Origin: Marinicellulosiphila megalodicopiae
Lineage (GTDB): Bacteria; Pseudomonadota; Gammaproteobacteria; Pseudomonadales; Natronospirillaceae
Length of the DNA stretch: 32,000 nt
Direction: 5' to 3'
NCBI RefSeq assembly: GCF_045862395.1
Contig: NZ_AP023087.1
Coordinates: 196,744-228,743, forward strand
Shown here: piece by piece, positions 2,673 through 27,403 of the stretch
Position numbering within the stretch: the first letter of the stretch is position 1
Layout: each line of letters starts with the position of its first letter
Notes under the pieces: model-generated
Databases searched by the model: none
Seen by the model: only the letters and a program-made list of their open reading frames with translations
What the model was told of the DNA's origin: nothing
Program-made: the position numbers and the translations under genes

Positions 2673-3131
2673 ATGAGATTATCCGAACGCCAAGTCGGTA
2701 TGATTCAAGACAGTTTTAAAAAAGTATTGCCAATTTCTGATGCGGCGGCTCAAATATTTTACGATAAGTTGTTTGAGTATGATGCTGATTTACAAAGACT
2801 GTTTAAGCAAAATATGGGAGACCAGGGTAAGAAGTTGATGCAAACACTGGCCGTGGCAATTGGTGCATTAAAGGATTTAGACAAGCTTGTACCCGTATTA
2901 CAAAATCTTGCTGTAAAGCATTTGGATTATGGTGTGAAAGTGGAAGATTATACACCTGTGGGAAATGCTTTACTTTTCACTTTAGAAAAAGGTCTTGGAA
3001 ATAGTTTTACTCAAGAGTTGAAACAGGCTTGGATTGTTTTGCTAAAAGTGGTGTTTAATGTCATGCGGCAGGCTGCTTATCCCGATTTTGATCCAATCAC
3101 TTATAAAAATATAAAGCGTTATAATATTTAA
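2673..3131 (+). CDS. single-domain globin (sensor-globin/protoglobin-type haem protein)
   Basis: 152 aa. IQDSFKKVLPISDAAAQIFYDKLFEYDADLQRLFK and the proximal-His context LAVKHLDYGVKVEDYTPVGNALL align by eye with bacterial single-domain globins. SD GAGGGAA upstream. Confidence 0.75.
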   Translation: MRLSERQVGMIQDSFKKVLPISDAAAQIFYDKLFEYDADLQRLFKQNMGDQGKKLMQTLAVAIGALKDLDKLVPVLQNLAVKHLDYGVKVEDYTPVGNALLFTLEKGLGNSFTQELKQAWIVLLKVVFNVMRQAAYPDFDPITYKNIKRYNI

Positions 3132-3819: not shown

Positions 3820-4692
3820 ATGACATCTATTGTTGAAATTCATAATTTAAGCAAAACCTATGATGGCAATTTAATATTAGATAATTTAAATCTCACAATC
3901 GAACAAGGGCAAATAATTGGTTTACTTGGTCGTAATGGCGCTGGTAAAACCACGTTAATAGAATCAATCATGGGGTTAAAGGATTTAAAAAAAAATTGCA
4001 TTCATATATGGCAGCAACCCATAAACGAGTTAAAAAAATCCCAGCTTCAATCCATTGCATTTGTTCCGCAAAATCAAGAATTATTTGAATGGATGAAAGT
4101 AAACGAATATTTTGATTATTTTTCAGTATTTTTTGAAAAGTGGGACAACCTTTATGCGCAGCAATTATTAAATCGTTGGAATCTCAATTCTACGAAAAAA
4201 ATATCAGAATTGTCTGGTGGGCAAAAACAAATACTTCAAATTGTTCAAGCATTATCGGTTAAACCTAAGCTTTTAATATTGGATGAGCCTGTCGTAAATT
4301 TAGACCCCAATATGCGACGAGAATTTCTTAAGGAAATTGTTGATTTGTCCTGTGAGAGCAACATTACAGTATTATTTTCAACTCATATTATTTCGGATGT
4401 TGAACGCATTGCAAGCCATATTGCTTTATTAAATAATGGTAAAATAGAAATATTTGACGCAGTAGAAACTATTCAAACTCATGCCGCTTCAGTGGTTATA
4501 CAAGGTACAATCACCAATAAAGAACAATATAACCATCTCACGCAGTGGGAGGATTTTGACCAAGGCCATAAAGCCGTAATGACCCAAAAAGGCAATCATT
4601 CAATCAGTCAAATTGAATGTGAAAATAATGTCACGATTCAATCTATACCTATGTCATTAGAAGATTGGTATTTGGAGGTTACACGTGCATAA
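3820..4692 (+). CDS. ABC transporter ATP-binding protein
   Basis: Walker A GRNGAGKTT, signature LSGGQKQ, Walker B LLILDEP, H-loop STHI. SD AAGGAAA upstream. Confidence 0.9.
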   Translation: MTSIVEIHNLSKTYDGNLILDNLNLTIEQGQIIGLLGRNGAGKTTLIESIMGLKDLKKNCIHIWQQPINELKKSQLQSIAFVPQNQELFEWMKVNEYFDYFSVFFEKWDNLYAQQLLNRWNLNSTKKISELSGGQKQILQIVQALSVKPKLLILDEPVVNLDPNMRREFLKEIVDLSCESNITVLFSTHIISDVERIASHIALLNNGKIEIFDAVETIQTHAASVVIQGTITNKEQYNHLTQWEDFDQGHKAVMTQKGNHSISQIECENNVTIQSIPMSLEDWYLEVTRA

Positions 4693-5950
4693 ATTTTTAA
4701 ATATATTAATAGCGAATATAAAGCTTTCAAAAAATTTATTAATTATTTGGATTTTAAGCATCGTTATTATCAACGGATTGTTGTTTGTTATTAATGCGTT
4801 TGTGTCATCTGATTTAGATTTAAATGTATACGCTATATATTTTGTAACCACTATTGTCATTGCTGTCGGATTTTTTTTGAATTTTTCTATTTTGAAAAAT
4901 AATCATTTTTATTCTGTTTTTTTTGAATATCGTTTATATCTGATATTAACTAGTCTTGCGATATTAACTTTTATTAGTTTTGTATCGGTAATAGGTATGG
5001 CGTTACTTGGTTATAGGGTTTGGTTGCATTTTCTCACACTTTTTATCGTTCTTAATAGCTTGATGCTATATTGTGCTATATTAAAAAAATTCACTATTGT
5101 GAGTAGTTTGGTAGCACTTTTTCCGGTGCTTGTTTTTTTTGATGATGTGTTTGATTTAAATAAAATTATTTTATTAACTTTTCTTGGGTTATTTCAAATA
5201 ATATTTGCATTTTTGTTAAACTATATCGAATCTAAGTATTCATTGAATGTATTTAAAGTCATTACCACATACATAAAATTAAATGTTGAATCCTTAATGT
5301 TTTTAATTGGAAGAAATATTAGATTGACCACATTTTTTAATAAATTAGATTTATATTTACATGTGTTTGTTTATTTGTTTTTTCTATTATTTTTGTTTCT
5401 AATATTTTCTAAAAGTGAAAATGATATCACTTACGAATTAATTGTATTGAGTTTTTTTGTCTTATTCATTCTAAGCTTAATTTCAATTCATCAAAAAACA
5501 CTTATGTTTATTAAATATTTAAAACCTGTGTACCACCTTTATCCTAATAGTAGCTTAAGTCATTCTATTATTAAGTATTTAAAAGTTAATATTATGGTGA
5601 ACATTCTAATTATTATTACTTTAGTGATGATTTTTGTCATTAGTTTTGATTTAGTTATCGATTATGAATTTTATTTTTCTGTGATGATTTTTAATCTAAC
5701 CTTCTTCGTTGGGCTGCTTCCTCTTTTGTTATTTCATAATCACACTAATAGCAGTATCTTATCATTTATATTTGTTATGTTTATTTTTTCGCTGATAGTT
5801 TCCATTAATGTTGGGTTTTATTATTTTGAATTTTCTGCTGTTTTGTATCTATTGCTAATTGCTTGTATCGTATCTTTTTTTGTGACTTACAATGTTGGGC
5901 TGAAATGGTATTTATCTGTTAGCAAAGAAAGGATGTTAAAAAATTCATAA
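4685..5950 (+). CDS. polytopic integral membrane protein, presumed permease partner of the ABC ATPase
   Basis: GTG start at 4685 preceded by GGAGG (4674-4678); overlaps the ATPase stop by 8 nt. 421 aa that is almost entirely hydrophobic segments (about 10 or more TM by eye). Extremely AT-rich; no recognisable family motif. Confidence 0.65.
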   Translation: MHKFLNILIANIKLSKNLLIIWILSIVIINGLLFVINAFVSSDLDLNVYAIYFVTTIVIAVGFFLNFSILKNNHFYSVFFEYRLYLILTSLAILTFISFVSVIGMALLGYRVWLHFLTLFIVLNSLMLYCAILKKFTIVSSLVALFPVLVFFDDVFDLNKIILLTFLGLFQIIFAFLLNYIESKYSLNVFKVITTYIKLNVESLMFLIGRNIRLTTFFNKLDLYLHVFVYLFFLLFLFLIFSKSENDITYELIVLSFFVLFILSLISIHQKTLMFIKYLKPVYHLYPNSSLSHSIIKYLKVNIMVNILIIITLVMIFVISFDLVIDYEFYFSVMIFNLTFFVGLLPLLLFHNHTNSSILSFIFVMFIFSLIVSINVGFYYFEFSAVLYLLLIACIVSFFVTYNVGLKWYLSVSKERMLKNS

Positions 5951-6010
5951 TAAATGGAAAACTAAATGGATTTAAAAACTTATTGTCAATAATAATGGTT
6001 GTATAAAAAT

Positions 6011-13254: not shown

Positions 13255-13578
13255 ATGGGTTTTATTAAATTTTTCATCATTCTGTTATTTATCGCATTTG
13301 GGATTGGCGTACTGTCTAAACCTGATGAGCAATCTTTAAAAGATATGTATTATCAGAAAATCTTAAATGACGTGCAGCAAATTAACGAAGACGATAACCT
13401 GTTAAGTGGCGCATTAAAAGTTGCTTGTATTTTAACCAAAGATGATTGTGCACAAAGTATTGTGGATAATTTAAACATTCAAAGTACCGATTATTTCGCA
13501 ATGAAACTTGCTAAAGTTCAGATTCAAAGTAATGAAAATATTTGTTTAGGTGTGTTTAATACTTGGAAATGTTTTTAA
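13255..13578 (+). CDS. hypothetical N-terminally membrane-anchored small protein
   Basis: 107 aa. N-terminal hydrophobic helix FIKFFIILLFIAFGIGVL, then a soluble region with 4 Cys. No family recognised. Confidence 0.5.
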   Translation: MGFIKFFIILLFIAFGIGVLSKPDEQSLKDMYYQKILNDVQQINEDDNLLSGALKVACILTKDDCAQSIVDNLNIQSTDYFAMKLAKVQIQSNENICLGVFNTWKCF

Positions 13579-13740
13579 GTAATTAATATCATTGAGGCAG
13601 GCTCAATTTATAAAAATCTAAAATGTATATTTTAAAATCAGATTGAAAATTGTATGCTAAGTTTTTAGAATGCTTAGGGTTTTGACTTTGATACTTAATT
13701 TTTTATTTGCTTTATTTAAAATATTATATCTGTAACTGTA

Positions 13741-13780
13741 AAAAATCCTCGATTTTGGTCGAGGACTTTTTTAGTTTTTT
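13741..13780. terminator. bidirectional rho-independent terminator
   Basis: AAAAAA-TCCTCGA-ttttgg-TCGAGGA-CTTTTTTAGTTTTTT. A-run and T-run flank a 7-bp GC-containing stem. Confidence 0.75.
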
Positions 13781-13834
13781 GAATTGGGTTGGTTTAAATT
13801 GTTGACAGCCATAAATAATATAGGCTTTACCTGC

Positions 13835-14498
13835 TTAAAATTTATCATTAGTGTCATGTTTGTAAGTATCGGTTATAAAGTCAGGAATCCCATCATCTTT
13901 GATGCCATTCAAGCCAGAAATACTTTTCGAGAATTGGTCATTTTTTAATTTTCAATTAATGATAACGTTTTGCTCTGCAGTCATATCAAATATATCTAAC
14001 GAGCTATACCAACCGCTGGCTGAGCCAAAAGTAAAAAATACACGGCAAGCATTCTCAACTTTATCTATTTCAGATTCAGTTAAATCATCAATGCCATCCT
14101 CGTTAAACTCTTTAATTGCACTTAACTCAAAAACAGTGACATCTAACATTGTTTCACCGTTTAATATAAGTCCATTACTGCCTTCTAATAATTCGACATC
14201 AATTTTTTCTAAATCTTCTAGTCCAAATACAATATAAGCAGTACATGAGGTTAAATGACTTTCATTACCAAAACTGCATCATCTATTTCATTTACCCAGC
14301 CAGTATTCTTCCCATAAAAAATATCATTTAAAGAGCTACTTCGAAATGCAAAACCCTCATTTTCATCATGATGTCTTAACCTCTGCAAAGTAAGCAATTA
14401 ATAAACCCATTAATGTGCTAACCAGCGACTTTTCAATCAAAGGTGGGAAGTTTTGACTTAAATGTTACGCCAGTAGGCGAAAACACATAAGGTGCCAT
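13835..14498 (-). pseudogene. frameshifted remnant of an acidic protein of unknown function
   Basis: Manual minus-strand translation gives protein-like pieces in different frames. They are MAPYVFSPTGVTFKSKLPTFD*, IEKSLVSTLMGLLIAYFAEVKTS*, HHDENEGFAFRSSSLNDIFYGKNTGWVNEIDDAVLVMKVI*, FGNESHLTSCTAYIVFGLEDLEKIDVELLEGSNGLILNGETMLDVTVFELSAIKEFNEDGIDDLTESEIDKVENACRVFFTFGSASGWYSSLDIFDMTAEQNVIIN* and KNDQFSKSISGLNGIKDDGIPDFITDTYKHDTNDKF*. Only the 65-aa piece (13952..14149) is in the ORF track. The 5' limit is uncertain. Confidence 0.5.
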
Positions 14499-14502
14499 TT
14501 AA

Positions 14503-14700
14503 GAATTAAATTCCGAATTTTTACCAAATGGTTGGTTTGTTACTAGGGCATTTGAACGTTGTATAACCTTAAAATCAGAAGGGTTTGAAGGCATTGGAAT
14601 GCCGAGGGATATTTATAGTGAAAATTTTAGCAAAGAGCAATCTTTTGAAATATTACCCAACGCAATGAATTTCGCAATTGAAAACATCAATAAAAAATAG
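14503..14700 (+). pseudogene. start-less 3' gene fragment (65 codons)
   Basis: Open frame immediately after a TAA: ELNSEFLPNGWFVTRAFERCITLKSEGFEGIGMPRDIYSENFSKEQSFEILPNAMNFAIENINKK*. No ATG/GTG/TTG before the internal Met, so it is likely a truncated remnant. Confidence 0.4.
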
Positions 14701-14784
14701 TTTATGGTTGAAATTTCATGCAATTTTACTTCTTTGTTCTATTCTGTAATTAACTGAAATTTTTATTAGTACTTTGGAAAAACT

Positions 14785-15843
14785 ATGTTGCAAGTTGTAA
14801 AGCAATTATCAAATTGGATTGGCGTAGCGCTTATAATGAGTGTTTGCTTACAAATTCATGCTCAAACGCCACCTGCGCCAGTGAACATGGTGATCCATTC
14901 AGGTTTTGTGAATCTGATGAGTGATCCAAAAGCGCTTGTATTTACTGATCTATATGAGGTGCCACCTAGTATCAAGCGTGTGGCTTTATATAACAGCAAC
15001 GATAAACTATCTAAGGAGATCAGTAAGCAGACTCGAACCATGATCGAAGGACAAATTTTATCAGAATTGTTAAATACAAAACGATTTGAAATTACAGCCT
15101 GTGTTGAATGCGATCAAATTAATGTCATATTAAATGAAGAGCAAGTCAAAATTGAAAAAGCCATTGAGAGCAATCAACAATTAAGGAAACTTGCAAAAAT
15201 CATTGCCGTAGATGCATTTTTTGTATGGAGTGCTCAAGTGGTAAACCAGCAATATCGAATCGATATGCGGTTGATTCGCGCCACAGACAATCAAGTATTA
15301 TGGACGCACCAGTATGCAAAAAAAACCACAGAAGAAGACGTGATAAAAGATTTTAAATCCACTCAATGGGAAATGTATTTAAGTAGCATTGGTTTTAAAA
15401 TGGAACGCACCTCCAGTACATTAAGTACTTTAAAATCTGGGCAGATTTCTGTGTTTGGGTTGCGTCGTCGTGAAGCGTCTACTTTTTATCCACATTTAAA
15501 TTATGGGTTAGGTATTGAGGTGTTTGGCAACATTACCAAGCGCGAATCCATGCCATTTTTTGGTGGGTCCATTAATGGCCGACTTAGTTTAGATTTTCCC
15601 GCATTACAAAAGTATATTCCTACCAGTACTTATATTGAAGTAGGGCAGAGTATATACAATCAAAGCCAAGCTTTAATTTTTAAATACGGACTTGAATTTC
15701 CGTTTGCTAAAAATGGAATCATTAATTTAGGTGTCTTATATTCTCCTGAAAATACAATCATTTGGGATGCGTTTGAAGACTATTCAACTGAAACCGTATT
15801 TGGTGGAGCAACTTATGAAATTATGCTGGGGTATCGACTTTGA
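14785..15843 (+). CDS. outer-membrane protein: signal peptide + periplasmic alpha/beta domain + C-terminal ~8-strand beta-barrel (first gene of the rotor-stator operon)
   Basis: Signal peptide ..WIGVALIMSVCLQIHA/QT. The C-terminal ~160 aa show eight amphipathic strands (LNYGLGIEVFG, FFGGSINGRLSLDF, TSTYIEVGQSIY, ALIFKYGLEFPF, GIINLGVLYSP, GGATYEIMLGYRL) ending in an OMP-like Y-x-L terminus. The N-domain pattern ..LAKIIAVDAFFVWSAQVVNQQYRIDMRLIRATDNQVLW resembles CsgG/LpoB/FlgO-type periplasmic domains (weak, by eye). Confidence 0.6.
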   Translation: MLQVVKQLSNWIGVALIMSVCLQIHAQTPPAPVNMVIHSGFVNLMSDPKALVFTDLYEVPPSIKRVALYNSNDKLSKEISKQTRTMIEGQILSELLNTKRFEITACVECDQINVILNEEQVKIEKAIESNQQLRKLAKIIAVDAFFVWSAQVVNQQYRIDMRLIRATDNQVLWTHQYAKKTTEEDVIKDFKSTQWEMYLSSIGFKMERTSSTLSTLKSGQISVFGLRRREASTFYPHLNYGLGIEVFGNITKRESMPFFGGSINGRLSLDFPALQKYIPTSTYIEVGQSIYNQSQALIFKYGLEFPFAKNGIINLGVLYSPENTIIWDAFEDYSTETVFGGATYEIMLGYRL

Positions 15844-16653: not shown

Positions 16654-18585
16654 ATGAAACGGATACCGTTATTAGTAATTGGCGCACTGGGTTTATTTTG
16701 TGTAAACCTCAAAGCAAATGAAATACAGCAATTAGATATTGTTGATCAACTTGAGCACCGTGTTGCAAGAGATGTGGCTGCCTATTTAGGGCACAATCGT
16801 TTTATCGTAAATATTGATGTCGCATTGTCAGCGATTACCTTGCAAAACAATCAAGTAAATTCTTCTCAAAATAATCAAGCAGAAATGGATGCCTATGAAA
16901 ACTTCAGTGAAACCATTTCATCACTTGAAGAAGTTATTCGTGTTTTGGAAAGTCAACAGCCTAAAATCAGTGAAATATCATTACCGGGATTACCCTTTGC
17001 TGCCCCAGAAAAAATTGACATTCCGGAATCGGAAGCACTGACCCTTTTAAATAAAACTATAACGGATTATCAAAACAAAAAACCCATAGCAACCTCAACA
17101 CCCAATAATGTTGCACCCACACTTACAGTATCAGAACAAACAAAAATTGATAATATTTTAGTAACCCTAGTAATTGATGAAACCATCGATGCAGAGCAAT
17201 TAAATTTTGTTAAATTTTTGATTGAAGACAAGTTAAATATCAATCCATTTCGTGGTGATAAAATCAGTGTCTTTCCAACTAAATTTAATTTAGAAACTTT
17301 TGAGCCAACGTTAAATTTAGATGAGCCCCTTGATTTAGACTCACCGATTAATTCTCAATTGAACGAAGATAAAAATACAGCAATGGAGCAGCCAGCATTA
17401 TTTGCATGGAATCAACCATTAACTTGGATATTGCTTGTACTTGTGGTTATGTTTTTAATGATGTTACTACTTTTAATTAGACGCAACCAAGGTGCTACTA
17501 ATTTGCAGTCAAATGCTCAGGCAGACACTGGATCAGTGACAGCATATAGCGACACCCATAAAAAACCTGACAATGTTTATGCTTATTCAGAAAAAATTAA
17601 AAACCTGAAGCAAGATATTATTAGCTCGGGATTGAGTCATCCTGAGCGTACAAGTTTAAGAGTGGATGAATTATTGTTTGAGCCTAATAATCAAGCCATG
17701 CTTGCCTGTGCGTATTTTGTGTTAGGTGGATCATTATTCAGAGGGTTATTTCCAAGCGTATCTCAAGCACAGCTTGTGACAATTTCACAATATCTAGACG
17801 AACAACAATTAGAGGATGAATCCATCGTACAAGAATTAAGTGCGCTGCATTTAATTTTATCTAAGCACAATGACACTAAAAGCACGACTACCACATTAGC
17901 GCCATTTCAATTTTTAAAACGCCTAAATAACAATCAAATTATTTATTTATTGCAAGAAGAAGAGCCAAGAATTAAAGCATTAGTACTTAGTCAGTTACCC
18001 GCGAATCGCGCCGCTGACATCATTCATAAACTCACCCCAGACCAGCAGGGGCAAGTTGCCTTTGAAATAGGTCAGTTTAGTGAATTTCCTATTTCTACCT
18101 TTAAAGATATTGCCCAACGTTTAGCCAAAAAATCATTAAATGTCCCAAGTTTTGAAAATCTCAATACCGATGGAACAAGTTTGATGATTGATTTATTAGA
18201 CAACATGAAAAATGAAAATGAACATCAATTTTTACAACAACTTAAAAATCAATCGCCTGAAATGTATTATCGTATTCGACAAATTTATTTTACTTTTGAA
18301 GACATTAAACGCACGCCTACTACTACATTAAAAGATGCTTTTGTAGATTTAGATCGCAAACAATTAGCGTTTGCATTAATGGGTGTGGATGAAACGTTAC
18401 TGCAACATTGTTTAGATTCCATGCCAAACAAATTAAAACAAGCCGTTAAAGATGAAATTGAATTCAGTGATGTAAAACCAAGTACCGATATGATTGAATC
18501 TGCTCGCAAACATATTGTTAAACATATTCGTGCATTAATTGAACTTGGTAAAATCAATATGCAAGACTTAGCCACGCTAGAATAA
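16654..18585 (+). CDS. bitopic membrane protein: FliF-C-terminal-like periplasmic region + TM + full FliG-like (N/M/C) cytoplasmic region
   Basis: 643 aa. Signal/anchor MKRIPLLVIGALGLFCV. Periplasmic aa 24-255 has LEHRVARDVAAYLGHNRFIVNIDVAL and ILVTLVIDETIDAEQLNFVKFLIEDKLNINPFRGDKISVFPTKF, the same pattern as the FliF segment before TM2 (..VAVVV...RGD..V....F). TM is LTWILLVLVVMFLMMLLLLI (aa 256-275). Cytoplasmic aa ~320-643 aligns by eye with FliG: LQEEEPRIKALVLSQLPANRAADIIHKLTPDQQGQVAFEIGQF (FliG_M) and YFTFEDIKRTPTTTLKDAFVDLDRKQLAFALMGVDETLLQHCLDSMPNKLKQAVKDEIEFSDVKPSTDMIESARKHIVKHIRALIELGKI (FliG_C). Confidence 0.7.
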   Translation: MKRIPLLVIGALGLFCVNLKANEIQQLDIVDQLEHRVARDVAAYLGHNRFIVNIDVALSAITLQNNQVNSSQNNQAEMDAYENFSETISSLEEVIRVLESQQPKISEISLPGLPFAAPEKIDIPESEALTLLNKTITDYQNKKPIATSTPNNVAPTLTVSEQTKIDNILVTLVIDETIDAEQLNFVKFLIEDKLNINPFRGDKISVFPTKFNLETFEPTLNLDEPLDLDSPINSQLNEDKNTAMEQPALFAWNQPLTWILLVLVVMFLMMLLLLIRRNQGATNLQSNAQADTGSVTAYSDTHKKPDNVYAYSEKIKNLKQDIISSGLSHPERTSLRVDELLFEPNNQAMLACAYFVLGGSLFRGLFPSVSQAQLVTISQYLDEQQLEDESIVQELSALHLILSKHNDTKSTTTTLAPFQFLKRLNNNQIIYLLQEEEPRIKALVLSQLPANRAADIIHKLTPDQQGQVAFEIGQFSEFPISTFKDIAQRLAKKSLNVPSFENLNTDGTSLMIDLLDNMKNENEHQFLQQLKNQSPEMYYRIRQIYFTFEDIKRTPTTTLKDAFVDLDRKQLAFALMGVDETLLQHCLDSMPNKLKQAVKDEIEFSDVKPSTDMIESARKHIVKHIRALIELGKINMQDLATLE

Positions 18586-18599
18586 TAAAGAGAAAAAAC

Positions 18600-19412
18600 A
18601 TGCCTTTTATAAGTACAGTTATTGGATTTGTTGGTGCTTCGTTATTATTTATATTTGCTATTACATCAAGTACCGATTCCTACTCAATGTTCTTAAGTCC
18701 ATCCAGTTTTTTATTAGTACTTGGGGGGACATTGGCAGCAAGTATTATTTCATTTAATTTATTTGATGTATTAAAAGCATTAGGGGCAATATTTAAAACA
18801 CTTTCAAATGACAAGGACACCAATCAAGTATTAAATAAAGATGTTAAAAAAATAATTGATTGGAGCAAAGTGTATCGAAAAAAAGGGTTGGGTAGTTGGA
18901 TTGACTCATTATCAAGCAAAGATCAAAAAGATAAATTTTTAAATTATTGTTTTGAAATGGTGCAAACTGGATATGAGCAAGAGGAATTACGTTATTTAAT
19001 TTCAGCAAGAATAGAGGCTGATTTTACGCGCAAAGCCCAGCCTGCAAAAATATTACAAACCATGGCAAGTTACGCTCCAGGCTTTGGTATGGTTGGCACT
19101 ATTATCGGCTTAATTATTATGCTTGATACGATGGGTGGCGATATTTCTGCATTAGGTAAAGGCTTGGCCTTAGCGTTAATTACCACGCTATATGGTGTAC
19201 TTTTAGGACAGCTAGTATTTAAACCCTGTGCTACCCATTTATTTAATAAAGTAGAAGGAGAATATTTTAGGCATCAAATTATTTTGGAAGGTATTATTTG
19301 TATTTTACAAAAACGCGATTCTATTGCGATTCAAGATCATATTAACGCTCTGTTGCGCCCTAAAGCCTATTATCAATTAAGCAATGAAAAAGAAGGAAAG
19401 TCCGATAAATAA
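18600..19412 (+). CDS. MotA/PomA-family proton-channel stator subunit
   Basis: 270 aa, 4-TM layout with a large cytoplasmic loop. Conserved YAPGFGMVGTIIGLIIML and GLALALITTLYGVLLGQLVFKPCA, including both MotA-type prolines. Confidence 0.85.
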   Translation: MPFISTVIGFVGASLLFIFAITSSTDSYSMFLSPSSFLLVLGGTLAASIISFNLFDVLKALGAIFKTLSNDKDTNQVLNKDVKKIIDWSKVYRKKGLGSWIDSLSSKDQKDKFLNYCFEMVQTGYEQEELRYLISARIEADFTRKAQPAKILQTMASYAPGFGMVGTIIGLIIMLDTMGGDISALGKGLALALITTLYGVLLGQLVFKPCATHLFNKVEGEYFRHQIILEGIICILQKRDSIAIQDHINALLRPKAYYQLSNEKEGKSDK

Positions 19413-20079: not shown

Positions 20080-22947
20080 TTATTGAGTGATTTTATTTAA
20101 TTCAATGACACCTGCATTAAGTTTTAATTGATATTGCACTGAAATATTATTTTCATCACTTGAAACGCTTACAGTATATTCACCATCTTGTTTGAACTGA
20201 TGCATCATAGTTAAAGTTGCGTCTGTATGATATCCATCACCAAAATCCCAATGTAAGGTTTTCACTTGCGAACTTGTGCACTGCTGATTTGAAATAATGT
20301 TTGCCATTGCTGAAAACTGAATTGTATTTGGATTTAATTCATCGTAAGAACTTTGTAATGAAATCGAATTAAATTGTGCATTGCAATTTTGGGTTAGTTG
20401 TTCGTCAGAAATGACTATGCTGGTTAAATTTTCCCAATCACCATACTGAGAATAAGTAATGTTATACGTACCCGGTTGGCTGTAGATATGTGTAAGTGAG
20501 CCAGTATTATAATATTGGTCAATACTTTCATCACCAAATGAAATCGTCAAATTGTCCGTTTGACTTGAGCATATTGATTCTCTTACAAATACATTTAAAT
20601 TCACTTGATTATTAATTTGTGAAATGAATTCTGCTTCAACTGGATTTATTGCCTGGCAATTAGAGACTGTAAATAATTCAGGCAATATCGAAACAACAAA
20701 TTCATCATTTAATTTGATGTCATAGTATTTTGAAGCATTGGCAAATTGATGAGTTAAATAATCTGTATTAAATTCGAATGCAGCACTGCCATTATCTAAA
20801 TCCAAAATTGGTCGAGTGCTGTATGCATAATTACAAATTTCAGAATTTTTAGCAGTTAAATCAAAAATAAATGTGTTATATGTATTTGTATCCACCCTAT
20901 AATTTAATTCCCAGTCACATTGTACAAAATCATCTGATAATGGTTCATTTAATTCAAAATTAGTTTGTCTAATTAATTCTAATGTAGATTCATTATCACT
21001 AATGATAATTTTATATTTTGATTCTAAATCCCCTGTTGCTGTATTTGCAGTAACAATATAATTGCCATTACGCAAATAGGTATGTGAAATACTTCCACCA
21101 GTTTTTGCTAGATATCCATCACCCATGTCCCAATATACTGTGTTTAGCGAACTCAAGGTGCAGCCATCTTCATTTAACTTCATTATTTCAGCATTTAAAT
21201 TAACGCTGTTGTTACCTTTTATAGATTGCATTAATGTGACGTTAATGAATTCAGAAAAATCCGCACATGAAAATTCAAGATCACTTTGATCAATCGTCAC
21301 GGTATAAATATCATCTGAATTACTGTTATCGCCAGTTGAATTGTAATTATTTAATGACTGTCCATCAAATTTAATTTGATAAACGCCAGCTTCTGAAAAT
21401 ACATGTTCGATTAATCCTTGTGAATAATAAGAAGGTGCACCATCTCCAAAATCTATTTCAACTAGACTACCATTATTGCTTTTACAGCCAATGTAGATGT
21501 CATCGTTATAATTTAGTGTTAATTTATTTTTATTTAATGAAATCACTTCAATTAAACTAGAAGTATATAGGCATCCAGTATCTGTCGATATGGATGTATT
21601 TCCTAGAGTTGTATACACAATTTCATTATTCAATTTTATGTCGTAATTTAAATCTGGATTTTCATAGATATATTTGACGTAATCCGTTTCTACAGAAAAA
21701 GGTTCACTTGAATCACCCATGTCAATGATAGGGCGAATAATATTTTGCATATCACAAGTGTCTGGATTTGTAACATCAACTGCTAAAATCATAATATTAT
21801 AGGAGTCATTTGCTAAAGAAACATCAAAATGACATGCATCAAAATTACCTGAATCAATTTGATGTTGCCCAATTAGTTTTGATTTAAATTCATCCTGTTC
21901 AAAAGTAATTTCATATATTTTCTCGATATTATTTTCGGGGGTTCTAAGCGTAACAATATACGTTTTATTTTGTTTAAATTCATGAATGATCGAACCATCA
22001 AAATTTGAATCTACATATGTTTTAGTGTTTCTTCCATCTCCAAAATTCCATTCAAAATATTTTACATCTGATTGTGTGCATTTGTCTGCTGAAAGCATTG
22101 TTCCTTTTGGAATAAAATTAATTTGTTTATTATTATTTTCATCAACTACAAATGTCAATTGAGTAATTGGTATTTCCCCATCACACTGATTAATTAAATC
22201 GTCTGCAGAAATATTAACTAACAACTCTTCATTATCTTGATATTGCTCGTATCCAGGTGGAACGAAATTATTAAAATTAGCCAACGATAAGCTATTAAAT
22301 GTAATGTCGTTATATTCGCCGATATCGGAAAAAATATGTTTTATTTTTCCTTGGTTGTAAACTTCGGGCTGGCTACCATCATTAAAATCGATTAAGACTT
22401 GGGCTGAATTATGCTCGCAACTATAATATCCTTCATAGCCATAATTTAAAATTAATACATTATCTATAATAGACTCAATGCTGATTTTCTCTGGAGAACT
22501 AATTGAGCAAGAAGTAATTGAACCTGCATCTCCATATATAGTCAGCGCTAATTCGTTATTTAATTTAATGTCGTATTCCATAAAGGATTTTTCATATTCA
22601 TAAGTAACATAATCGCCTTCCACAACAAATGGGGCGCTTCCATCGCCCATGTCTATAGTTGGTTTTTGCAGATTAGTTTGATCGCATGTAGCTTCATTTA
22701 ATAATGACACTGACAAAATAACAGAATTGTAATCGTAAATTTTCTTTACGGTCCAAATGCACTGATCTGGATCTATCACGACTAATTCAGTTTCGATGGA
22801 ATCACTTGATTCAGTTTCTGTATTTGTTTCAATACCAGATTCCGTATTAGTATCCAATTCTGAGTCGGTGGAATTATTCGCTTCAACCAAGTTATCTAAA
22901 CAAGACGAAAGTAATAGCGTAACAAAAAATAGGTTTAAAGTTTTCAT
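20080..22947 (-). CDS. 955-aa lipoprotein made of nine PKD-like domains (3 super-repeats of 3)
   Basis: Lipobox LLLSSC, then an acidic Thr/Glu linker. Recurrent PKD hallmarks are WNFGDGRNT, WDMGDGY, WDFGDGY, IDFGDGAP and IDMGDGSAPF. Three ~300-aa super-repeats each begin with a C-x-W/F...C pair. SD GAGGGA upstream. Confidence 0.8.
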   Translation of the reverse strand: MKTLNLFFVTLLLSSCLDNLVEANNSTDSELDTNTESGIETNTETESSDSIETELVVIDPDQCIWTVKKIYDYNSVILSVSLLNEATCDQTNLQKPTIDMGDGSAPFVVEGDYVTYEYEKSFMEYDIKLNNELALTIYGDAGSITSCSISSPEKISIESIIDNVLILNYGYEGYYSCEHNSAQVLIDFNDGSQPEVYNQGKIKHIFSDIGEYNDITFNSLSLANFNNFVPPGYEQYQDNEELLVNISADDLINQCDGEIPITQLTFVVDENNNKQINFIPKGTMLSADKCTQSDVKYFEWNFGDGRNTKTYVDSNFDGSIIHEFKQNKTYIVTLRTPENNIEKIYEITFEQDEFKSKLIGQHQIDSGNFDACHFDVSLANDSYNIMILAVDVTNPDTCDMQNIIRPIIDMGDSSEPFSVETDYVKYIYENPDLNYDIKLNNEIVYTTLGNTSISTDTGCLYTSSLIEVISLNKNKLTLNYNDDIYIGCKSNNGSLVEIDFGDGAPSYYSQGLIEHVFSEAGVYQIKFDGQSLNNYNSTGDNSNSDDIYTVTIDQSDLEFSCADFSEFINVTLMQSIKGNNSVNLNAEIMKLNEDGCTLSSLNTVYWDMGDGYLAKTGGSISHTYLRNGNYIVTANTATGDLESKYKIIISDNESTLELIRQTNFELNEPLSDDFVQCDWELNYRVDTNTYNTFIFDLTAKNSEICNYAYSTRPILDLDNGSAAFEFNTDYLTHQFANASKYYDIKLNDEFVVSILPELFTVSNCQAINPVEAEFISQINNQVNLNVFVRESICSSQTDNLTISFGDESIDQYYNTGSLTHIYSQPGTYNITYSQYGDWENLTSIVISDEQLTQNCNAQFNSISLQSSYDELNPNTIQFSAMANIISNQQCTSSQVKTLHWDFGDGYHTDATLTMMHQFKQDGEYTVSVSSDENNISVQYQLKLNAGVIELNKITQ

Positions 22948-26317: not shown

Positions 26318-27403
26318 TTAATGTATGTATAACGATGTGATCAAGCGTTCAACCCAAAATGCACTAAATTGCTGATTTGATAGTTTACTGAGTTCAACCA
26401 ATGCACGTTTTACAGGTCTCTGATAATCGGACTTATAATAATGTCCATGTGTAATCGCTTCATAAGCATGAATAATAGACAGACACATAGCGCCAGGGTG
26501 AATATCGTTTTCAGTCAGACCTTTAGGGTAACCTAGACCGTTGACCCATTCGTGATGCTCATGCAAAATTCTTGAGGCTTGCTGCCAATGCTCGCTTTGG
26601 GATAATAAAAAACTACAGGCATAAACATGTGCTTTGATTTGTTTTTTTTCATTTTGGGTCATGGGCTGTTCGCGAGATAGCAATTTGATAGGCAAAAACG
26701 ACATCGCAATATCATGTGTATAAATAGCCGCTGCTATTTGTTCAAAATCAAAATCGTATTGGCTGCCGTCTAGCATTCTATGCGCAAGATTGAGTAATCG
26801 ATTGGTTCGTCCTTTCCATTGAGGCATTCTATTTTCGACGCTAGGAATTAAATTGGCAAAATAAGTTAAATCAGGATATTGCTCAGGAAACTGATTGTGA
26901 AGCATCGATTCTTCTATTTCTATTAATGAAGGTTGGTTGTGATTCAACAGAGCAAGGGCTTTGAGAATTTGTAACTCAGGGTCGCTATGGGTTGATATTT
27001 TATTGATTTGTATTCCAACATCTTCATAAAGTTTTGCGTCATAAAACACAGTCTCCGACTCAAGTGAGTCATTTAAAAATGTTTTAACATGATCAAGTAA
27101 TAATAACGAAAGATCGCCAATTTTAGGATTAAATTCAAGCTCACCTTGTCGAACCAAACTTAAAACGTCTTCTAATTCTTGTAATACAGGAATTAACGGC
27201 GGTAATTGTGCAATACTTAAATTGCCTTTAACTGTGTGGATATTTCTAAATAGTGCGCTGAGCTTTTCAGTCTCTTTAGGTTGATGCTCCAATTCAATAA
27301 TTAAATTTTCAGCATCTGCTAAATTTTCATGAAATTCTTCATGCAGGTTTTGCAGTAACTCTTGATTTAACTGTTCAGTTCTAAATTCTAACATTGTATG
27401 CAT
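26318..27403 (-). CDS. HPt-domain / HD-GYP-domain fusion protein (putative c-di-GMP phosphodiesterase or degenerate sensor)
   Basis: N-terminal LSALFRNIHTVKGNLSIAQL is an HPt phospho-His motif (HxxKG). The C-terminal part has YTHDIAMSF ... IKAHVYACSFLL ... HEHHEWVNGLGYPKGL (HD-GYP signature HHExxxGxGYPxGL). The start may be the second ATG (27394), which has better spacing from GGTGGTGGA. Confidence 0.7.
   Translation of the reverse strand: MHTMLEFRTEQLNQELLQNLHEEFHENLADAENLIIELEHQPKETEKLSALFRNIHTVKGNLSIAQLPPLIPVLQELEDVLSLVRQGELEFNPKIGDLSLLLLDHVKTFLNDSLESETVFYDAKLYEDVGIQINKISTHSDPELQILKALALLNHNQPSLIEIEESMLHNQFPEQYPDLTYFANLIPSVENRMPQWKGRTNRLLNLAHRMLDGSQYDFDFEQIAAAIYTHDIAMSFLPIKLLSREQPMTQNEKKQIKAHVYACSFLLSQSEHWQQASRILHEHHEWVNGLGYPKGLTENDIHPGAMCLSIIHAYEAITHGHYYKSDYQRPVKRALVELSKLSNQQFSAFWVERLITSLYIH

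Follow-up and report, generated by a model that had tools for sequence, protein, structure and literature searches.

A natural FliF–FliG fusion encoded with its own MotA/MotB pair suggests a rotary machine separate from the flagellum

In characterised systems FliG is the rotor of the flagellum, and RBM3, one of the ring-building motifs (RBMs) of FliF, is known for its role in ring building. Stators of the flagellar MotAB type are likewise treated as a flagellar clade (PMC12505986). A natural fusion of FliF and FliG has been described in Chlamydiaceae: it has about 330 amino acids (aa) and comprises RBM2, one RBM-like domain and a FliG_M-like end only (Bergeron 2016, PMC4768692), and it was proposed to work with the injectisome, MotAB not being involved (PMC4768692). 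Engineered FliF–FliG fusions are also reported to work in Salmonella (Francis 1992 and Thomas 2001, as cited in PMC4768692). Here we analyse a stretch of 32,000 nucleotides from Marinicellulosiphila megalodicopiae (contig NZ_AP023087.1, positions 196,744 to 228,743; hereafter the window), in which the open reading frame (ORF) at 16654-18585 on the + strand appears to encode a natural fusion of a short FliF with a whole FliG, followed immediately by genes for MotA and MotB.

The ORF is genuine and its product has 643 aa. An initial annotation, made from the sequence by eye, had read it as a single polypeptide in which a C-terminal segment of FliF is joined through one transmembrane (TM) helix to a complete FliG, and Pfam, hhalign and Foldseek comparisons, together with the mapping of a split form of the gene, bear that reading out. 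The gene belongs to a compact cassette in which five genes follow one another closely on one strand, in the order barrel protein, tetratricopeptide-repeat (TPR) lipoprotein, fusion, MotA and MotB. The parts list of the cassette, the conservation of both sides of the rotor–stator interface and the co-inheritance of the five genes are direct observations. The analysis suggests a rotary machine that is separate from the flagellum and undescribed, and we consider it fairly likely that the fusion serves as rotor subunit in a rotor–stator machine that is free-standing, driven by ions and independent of the flagellum. No published description of the five-gene cassette was found in open-access papers and bioRxiv; one elsewhere is possible. 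The five genes are as follows.

14785 to 15843, + strand: gene 1, predicted outer-membrane protein, 352 aa
15840 to 16652, + strand: gene 2, predicted outer-membrane lipoprotein, 270 aa
16654 to 18585, + strand: gene 3, predicted fusion, 643 aa: the RBM3, TM helix and tail of a short FliF, then all of FliG (N, M and C domains)
18600 to 19412, + strand: gene 4, flagellar-type stator A subunit resembling MotA/PomA/MotP, 270 aa
19384 to 20076, + strand: gene 5, stator B subunit resembling MotB/MotD, with plug and OmpA-like peptidoglycan-binding domain, 230 aa

Along the fusion protein, the following segments are predicted.

16654 to 16719, + strand: signal-peptide-like N-terminus, aa 1-22, MKRIPLLVIGALGLFCVNLKA, read from the sequence, with presumed cleavage before NE
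16723 to 17289, + strand: periplasmic ring-building domain resembling FliF RBM3, aa 24-212
16981 to 16995, + strand: LPGLP motif, aa 110-114
17419 to 17478, + strand: sole TM helix, aa 256-275, equivalent of FliF TM2, with RR after the helix on the cytoplasmic side
17575 to 17685, + strand: two-helix tail segment, aa 308-344, corresponding in position to the C-terminal tail with which FliF binds FliG
17686 to 17898, + strand: divergent FliG_N-like domain, aa 345-415
17899 to 18168, + strand: FliG middle domain, aa 416-505
18169 to 18573, + strand: FliG C-terminal domain, aa 506-640, including the hinge Y-F-x-F at aa 545-548 (matching MFxF)
18421 to 18465, + strand: torque helix MPNKLKQAVKDEIEF, aa 590-604, in which K593 corresponds to R281 and D600/E601 to D288/D289

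Pfam placed FliG_C (PF01706) on aa 529-635 with 81.3 bits (cut-off 23.3) and FliG_M (PF14841) on aa 427-497 with 53.6 bits (cut-off 25); both domains were detected in 59/59 relatives. The closest solved sequences were the FliGs of Aquifex (3hjl, E = 7.8e-21) and Thermotoga (1lkv, 3e-19). The engineered Vibrio FliF–FliG construct, for which structures have been solved (PDB 8z4d/8z4g), matched as well (8z4d, E = 1.5e-12). An AlphaFold2 (AF2) model was compared with solved structures using Foldseek, as the initial annotation had proposed, and matched both full-length FliG and FliF RBM3 chains: 310-339 columns were aligned with full-length FliG chains of 310-331 residues, the FliG C-terminal domain superposed on 1qc7 and 8ucs_H with TMt 0.89-0.90 and a root-mean-square deviation (rmsd) of 1.5, and the RBM3/S-ring chains 7bk0_B, 8z5v_A, 6sd3_Q and 8zdt_A were retrieved at probability 0.99-1.0.

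In FliG, the charges of R281 and D288/D289 are established as pairing with E98 and R90 of MotA (R90/E98 with D289/R281; PMC7564593, PMC12505986). The annotation had aligned a basic, acidic-acidic, basic pattern of the fusion with these residues, and its first three positions were recovered: BLASTP against E. coli FliG equates K593 with R281, D600 with D288 and E601 with D289. K593 is invariant in 34 close relatives and is K or R in 49/59 diverse members, 42/59 of which have an acidic residue at 600 or 601. The last position, K608, had to be dropped; it is equivalent to R297 in the Thermotoga alignment only, and is K in 8/59 members and so not conserved. E. coli K264 is not conserved either, its position being M576 in the fusion, while the position of hinge residue F236 is kept in 52/59. 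On the stator side, the column of MotA R90 is basic in 7/7 cassettes, P173 and P222 are invariant, an acidic residue stands at or beside E98 in 6/7 cassettes, and MotB D32 is invariant among cassettes. That the MotA/MotB pair immediately downstream of the fusion keeps these residues supports the role that the annotation had assigned to the fusion, the rotor of a local system. As judged from sequence and model comparisons, the protein would almost certainly work like the ring part of FliF combined with the torque part of FliG.

The EHPQR motif, with which FliG binds FliM, has been lost throughout the family. In the window protein it is replaced by E436-E437-P438-R439 ... E471. Among the 59 members E125 is kept in 54/59, H126 is H in 0/59, the Q128 column holds R or K in 33/59 and Q in 4/59, and the R160 column holds E in 42/59 and R in 2/59. 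The NCBIfam FliG equivalog (TIGR00207) scored 90.9 bits against a cut-off of 226.7. Defining features of both families were tested and found to be lacking, which places the fusion outside orthologous FliG and FliF.

For the periplasmic part, a custom profile was built over residues 20-285 of the window protein from 59 diverse family members. In a single comparison it matched E. coli FliF 231-470 at 37.9 bits (E = 7e-14), a stretch that runs precisely from RBM3 to TM2. The alignment sets 'LEHRVARDVAAYLGHNRFIV...' opposite FliF 'DVEGRIQRRIEAIL...GNGNIHAQV' and 'ILVTLVID...RGDKISVFPTKF' opposite FliF 'LSVAVVVN...RGDSLNVVNSPF'; the two FliF-like motifs quoted in the annotation thus lie on their FliF counterparts and represent true homology. 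Consistent with this, hhalign aligned aa 164-260 with E. coli FliF 373-455 (probability 85-94%), and Pfam YscJ_FliF_C (PF08345) was significant in 13/59 relatives, the best at 7e-8. In the AF2 model, aa 24-212 have the layout of a ring-building motif, alpha-beta (24-62), insertion (63-160) and beta-alpha-beta (161-209), with the insertion in the position of the FliF beta-collar. LPGLP aligns with FliF GVPGALSN; L110, P111, L113 and P114 are invariant among the close clade, and among the 59 diverse members conservation reaches 90% or more at L110, P111 and G112. A truncated FliF lacking TM1 and RBM1-2, as the annotation had it, agrees with the Pfam results for PF01514 (RBM1-RBM2, SctJ-like), which matched neither the window protein nor any of the 59 relatives. 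TM1 and RBM1-2 are not represented, since the FliF alignment begins at residue 231 and the N-terminus resembles a cleavable signal peptide, and the protein would therefore have no seat for an export gate or rod.

The first 22 residues have the look of a Sec signal peptide, with K/R, a hydrophobic run and LKA before NE, and the N-termini of relatives show comparable K/R, hydrophobic and AxA-like ends. Apart from the N-terminus, the only hydrophobic helix is aa 256-275, which is followed by RR. The TM helix annotated there is reproduced by AF2, which puts a helix at aa 255-280 covering it, and by the family profile, which aligns it with E. coli FliF 455-470. A topology of signal peptide and one TM helix is inferred from the hydrophobic segments and the AF2 helix, and the signal-peptide-like N-terminal segment makes the fusion probably a type I membrane protein.

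The annotation had let FliG begin at aa ~320. Its FliG assignment stands; the start does not, as FliG homology begins near aa 345 and aa 308-344 correspond to the C-terminal tail of the FliF-like partner. Residues 308-344, which include the invariant Q320, L327 and P330, align with the C-terminal tails of unfused ring proteins. Against the E. coli FliF tail the registers agree, at a score that is not significant (12.8, versus shuffles at 8.7 +/- 2.1 with a maximum of 14.0); the FliG-binding tail of FliF is probably shared with the fusion protein. When aa 296-420 were searched alone, no FliG_N match was found in Pfam or PDB sequence searches. In relatives, Pfam FliG_N matches fall mostly on the M region because FliG repeats resemble one another, and the 42/59 relatives with such a match were not counted as evidence, most of these being M-domain cross-matches. 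One relative (P0044) has a properly placed FliG_N match of 34 bits. Comparison of profiles using hhalign gave a score of 33.5 against canonical FliG_N, versus 10.5 +/- 2.4 (maximum 17.9) for 60 column-shuffled templates, and profile–profile alignment placed aa 350-383 on E. coli FliG 10-43. Unfused FliGs with significant Pfam FliG_N matches align onto the aa 345-415 region from their residue 10.

Two loci of Candidatus Marinimicrobia (L053:1147-3227 and L054:4993-8933) carry the two halves as separate, adjacent genes with a one-base overlap, in the order MotA, MotB, ring protein, FliG. The split ring protein has 382-504 aa and matches PF08345 only; the split FliG has 310 aa and Pfam N, M and C domains, and is without EHPQ. 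On the fusion-family profile the ring protein maps to 29-344 and FliG to 345-637, and the split form is closer to the fusion family than canonical FliG is (206 bits to the family profile). Several TPR proteins flank the split genes. No other flagellar genes were found within 8 kb of them, a homologue of the outer-membrane barrel protein was not detected in L054, and no description of the split clusters was found in open-access papers and bioRxiv. 'Flagellar proteins' have been reported in most Marinimicrobia metagenome-assembled genomes (MAGs) of one study (PMC8163782). The separate adjacent genes are the strongest evidence for reading the window protein as a truncated FliF–FliG fusion. On the strength of the profile–profile comparison and the mapping of the split form, the fusion is best described as a short FliF, including its C-terminal tail, and a whole FliG, joined at about residue 344/345.

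The stator proteins encoded behind the fusion are, by their profile scores, of the flagellar type and not of the ExbB/TolQ type. Gene 4 matched the NCBIfam models MotP (1.1e-45), MotA (9.5e-42) and PomA (7.4e-38), versus ExbB at 2e-4 and TolQ at 5e-3. Gene 5, which overlaps motA by 29 nucleotides, matched Pfam MotB_plug (1.6e-15) and OmpA (1e-12) and NCBIfam MotD (6e-50). Because the stator scores lie under the NCBIfam equivalog cut-offs (155.8 vs 394), the MotAB of the cassette is classed by these profiles as a distinct subfamily.

For the product of gene 1, the prediction is a signal peptide followed by a periplasmic domain of alpha/beta type at aa ~65-179 and, at aa ~191-351, a C-terminal beta-barrel of 8 strands; in the orthologue alignment the protein ends in ...LGYR[FL]. 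Its AF2 model has a pLDDT of 63.9, with the barrel blocks at 83-90. Foldseek matched the barrel to OmpA-TM (9fzc, E = 8e-7) and also to NspA, Ail, OmpX and OmpW, and the N-terminal domain to LpoB-C (4q6l, TMt 0.65, rmsd 4.4) and TolB-N. Among gene 1 orthologues there were weak Pfam matches to FlgO (5/8, best 7e-4) and FlgT_M (2/8). The periplasmic domain also contains an invariant CxxC (C106 and C109; aa 106-109) in a low-confidence AF2 loop, a pair that could form a disulfide or bind metal. Gene 2 encodes an LTGC lipobox, a long low-complexity linker rich in N, S, Q and P, and a conserved C-terminal TPR domain of ~95 aa, with Pfam TPR_1/TPR_2 at aa 225-256; disorder-promoting residues make up 71% of the middle 170 aa. 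The lipobox is present in 7/8 orthologues, the eighth having LPAC, and the residue after the Cys is never Asp. Upstream of gene 1, sigma-70, sigma-54 and (by eye) sigma-28 promoter motifs were sought and none was found above chance. In the ~1.5 kb before the cassette (13255-14785) no promoter is recognisable, and all ORFs are short and of low quality.

Loci were screened with hidden Markov models of all five proteins, giving 50 loci including the window, a few of which are the same contig twice. The complete five-gene set is present in the same order in 42/50. In 6/50 contig ends interrupt the cassette, which is consistent as far as present; one locus (L051) has all five genes in a different order, and one (L050) has the fusion alone. 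The cassette is retained down to ~20% identity (L052), while its flanks vary from locus to locus and consist of unrelated housekeeping genes (fumarase, CTP synthase and enolase, PhoX, and others). Flagellar genes besides motAB were found neither in the 32-kb window nor in any flank for which gene calls were listed, and in the loci examined no FliM, FliN, rod, hook, filament or export-gate gene lies near or accompanies the cassette. The architecture, which the annotation had called unusual, is not a one-off, as an exhaustive profile search returned at least 181 cluster representatives of the fusion family at E <= 1e-30. A different natural fusion, that of Chlamydiaceae, was known before (PMC4768692). 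The best 150 representatives are mostly 550-730 aa long. The close clade is of marine Oceanospirillales type and includes Thalassolituus, Oleispira, Bermanella, Oceanobacter, Oceaniserpentilla, Bacterioplanoides, Gynuella and Saccharospirillaceae; Moritella also carries homologues of gene 1, a gene for which the word-indexed search returned few homologues overall. With the fused form in Gammaproteobacteria and the split form in Marinimicrobia, the system is present in at least two phyla.

Analysis of the ratio of nonsynonymous to synonymous substitution rates (dN/dS), confined to the four pairs with unsaturated dS, gave a median of 0.054 for the whole fusion, 0.014 for FliG_M, 0.032 for FliG_C and 0.091 for the periplasmic domain, and values of 0.01-0.14 across every domain. 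The fusion is under strong purifying selection and is not a relic. The fusion protein of the window is identical to the one recorded for M. megalodicopiae, an organism described as motile with monopolar flagella (PMC11966569). Because the host is already flagellated, the cassette is additional to its polar flagellum and would represent a second, non-flagellar rotor.

If the fusion is a rotor subunit, the machine might work as follows. The signal peptide would be cleaved, and the RBM3 domains would then form a periplasmic ring resembling the FliF S-ring, which would carry a ring of FliG domains beneath the inner membrane. Peptidoglycan-anchored units of the MotA5B2 type would conduct H+ or Na+ via MotB D32 and push on the FliG torque helix, the MotA R90 equivalent acting with D600/E601 and the MotA acidic residue with K593, so that the ring turns. 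With the FliM-binding EHPQR lost and genes for switch proteins absent, the ring would turn in one direction only and outside chemotaxis control. Stators are held in place by MotX/MotY/FlgT/FlgO in Vibrio and by PflA/PflB in Campylobacter, and the two outer-membrane proteins of the cassette might form a stator scaffold of either kind or, alternatively, receive the torque at the outer membrane. The fullest version of this model, an axle-less autonomous rotary machine in which an RBM3–FliG ring is turned one way by its own MotAB and is linked via the TPR lipoprotein and the barrel protein to a surface process, is plausible and we put it forward tentatively.

Were that version true, this would be the first FliG-based rotor known outside the flagellum, and a living rotor–stator core without a type III export apparatus would bear on the evolution of the flagellar motor. 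Were the ring to rotate, the cassette would be an ion-driven rotary machine reduced to a minimum of five genes. Such a machine would appeal to structural biology and to the design of synthetic motors, and would offer a natural comparison for ideas on a stepwise origin of the flagellar motor. FliG and flagellar-type MotAB are in any case kept here under strong selection without rod, hook, filament, export gate or switch. A second function for rotor proteins that lack a filament has been left open (PMC12199754).

Several results weigh against a flagellum-independent rotor. The AF2 monomer is of only moderate confidence (pLDDT 64.6, pTM 0.26). PF08345 on the window protein by itself (aa 44-211) scored 22.1 bits, just under the cut-off of 23.8. 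The acidic pair of the torque helix is absent from 17/59 members and the basic residue from 10/59, to which alignment error at 17-25% identity contributes, and the MotA of one cassette, that of the Gynuella locus L008, has no acidic residue at or beside E98. The distant member in L050 is without MotAB, and a conserved cargo or output gene was not found. Finally, all nameable hosts come from flagellated genera or are possibly flagellated, so that independence from the flagellum rests on gene context and not on a host that lacks one.

The complex might instead span the envelope without rotating, FliG docking and unplugging MotAB so that the assembly serves as a regulated ion path, a sensor, or a force transducer like Tol-Pal or TonB that acts on the outer-membrane partners. 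Neither axle nor cargo is encoded, the outer-membrane partners with their long linkers recall the designs of LpoB and Tol-Pal (the N-terminal domain of gene 1 resembles LpoB-C and TolB-N), and the 5:2 motors ExbBD, TolQR, GldLM and ZorAB operate without a FliG ring (PMC12505986). Docking, however, has no obvious need of a whole FliG, which is nevertheless strongly constrained together with RBM3, and this constraint includes the Y-F-x-F hinge and the torque-helix charges; we regard a non-rotating complex as unlikely. It is also conceivable that the cassette serves the host's polar flagellar motor, either as a substitute rotor/stator set or through an additional ring recruited to the basal body in certain conditions. 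Second stator sets (MotCD, MotAB beside PomAB) and FliG paralogues are precedents, the stator is of the flagellar type, and gene 1 is weakly FlgO/FlgT_M-like, FlgO and FlgT being flagellar outer-ring proteins of Vibrio. The named hosts of the close clade, moreover, are all from flagellated marine genera (PMC11966569). A protein with its own ring-building domain and membrane anchor would, on the other hand, compete with FliF rather than surround it, and the fusion lacks both the FliM-binding motif and RBM1-2, the holders of export gate and rod. The cassette never adjoins flagellar genes in the loci examined, and a sigma-28 or sigma-54 motif is absent upstream, which is a weak test. A flagellar accessory role thus seems distinctly unlikely.

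Two further readings were considered and rejected. Incomplete flagellar gene sets are common (PMC12199754) and a stop codon splits the fusion gene in one MAG (L033), as might be expected of the decaying remnant of a lost second (e.g. lateral) flagellar system. Yet dN/dS is low in every domain, the five-gene order is held across genera and down to ~20% identity, an equally compact split version exists in another phylum, and both the fusion and the pair of outer-membrane partners are features gained rather than lost; on dN/dS and synteny we consider a remnant highly improbable. A Zorya-like anti-phage defence built on a MotAB-like motor is more improbable still. The PADLOC models of ZorB match MotB (70 bits) and those of ZorA match MotA weakly (17 bits), but these matches reflect general MotAB homology, as the flagellar models outscore them by a wide margin (156 and 170 bits), and MotA, at 270 aa, is without the long ZorA tail. 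Genes like ZorC, ZorD or ZorE were absent according to the PADLOC models, the other three proteins had no convincing PADLOC match (one of 13.9 bits fell on the fusion, E = 0.006), and the cassette lies among housekeeping genes, not in defence islands. The defence reading was rejected since no effector models match and the ZorA score is weak. A free-standing rotor–stator machine is the reading that we favour.

Some observations were made around the cassette in other genomes. In L051 (3191-17415), a distant gammaproteobacterial MAG, a Sel1/SPOR protein precedes the reordered five genes, and a polysaccharide export cluster of the Wza/Wzc/Wzy type and a BBP2 barrel protein follow directly after them. 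This adjacency is either a clue to the output or a coincidence; no other locus shows it, and we provisionally treat it as coincidence. The 771-aa distant member in L050 (8001-11709) stands alone, without MotAB, TPR or barrel genes, and has a KAP-family NTPase as its neighbour. The Gynuella locus, too, encodes a KAP NTPase, ~6 kb downstream of its fusion gene. In L033 (5896-7845), from a Red Sea Oceanospirillaceae MAG, a stop near the C-terminal domain splits the fusion gene into two ORFs, the result either of faulty assembly or of recent pseudogene formation.

Elsewhere the window encodes ordinary metabolic and transport functions. The gene for a 955-aa protein that has three PKD domains (20080-22947, - strand) is convergent with motB, the two stop codons lying 3 bases apart; in other genomes it does not keep this place beside the cassette. 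After a GntR regulator and an ABC ATPase comes a 421-aa ORF with no Pfam match (4685-5950), which spans the most AT-rich kilobase of the window (5001-6000; GC 0.24, AT skew -0.24). At 26318-27403 on the - strand, Hpt phosphotransfer and HD-GYP-type (HD_5) domains are found in one protein, possibly linking a phosphorelay to cyclic-di-GMP signalling, and a 152-aa bacterial globin gene (2673-3131, + strand) adjoins the gene for a small HD-domain protein.

Compared with the flagellar core of FliF/FliG and MotAB/PomAB, the cassette shares RBM3, TM2, probably the FliG-binding tail, and the N, M and C domains of FliG, as well as the R281 and D288/D289 charges with their MotA partners R90 and E98, MotB D32, the plug and the OmpA-like anchor. 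It differs in that the fusion is a single polypeptide without TM1, RBM1-2 and EHPQR, and in that the cassette is without FliM/FliN, lies away from flagellar genes and includes a barrel protein and a TPR lipoprotein. The chlamydial fusion resembles the one described here in being a natural single chain of a shortened FliF and FliG in a setting without a complete flagellum. By its published description it differs from our protein in all of its domains, and only the principle of fusion is common to both: ours combines RBM3, as its sole RBM, with the N, M and C domains of FliG, torque helix included, and is accompanied by a stator of its own. The engineered fusions indicate that a covalent FliF–FliG link is compatible with ring assembly; they differ in being laboratory products with full-length FliF inside a complete flagellum. 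The Marinimicrobia clusters share with the cassette a PF08345-only ring protein, FliG without EHPQ, MotA, MotB and TPR proteins, and differ in having ring protein and FliG as two genes and several TPR proteins. ExbBD-TonB, TolQR-TolA-Pal, GldLM/PorLM, AglRQS and ZorAB are similar as ion-driven, non-swimming motors of the MotAB family that reach the outer membrane. None of them, however, has a FliG rotor ring, and the stator of the cassette is of the flagellar (MotA/PomA/MotP) type, with a large cytoplasmic torque interface.

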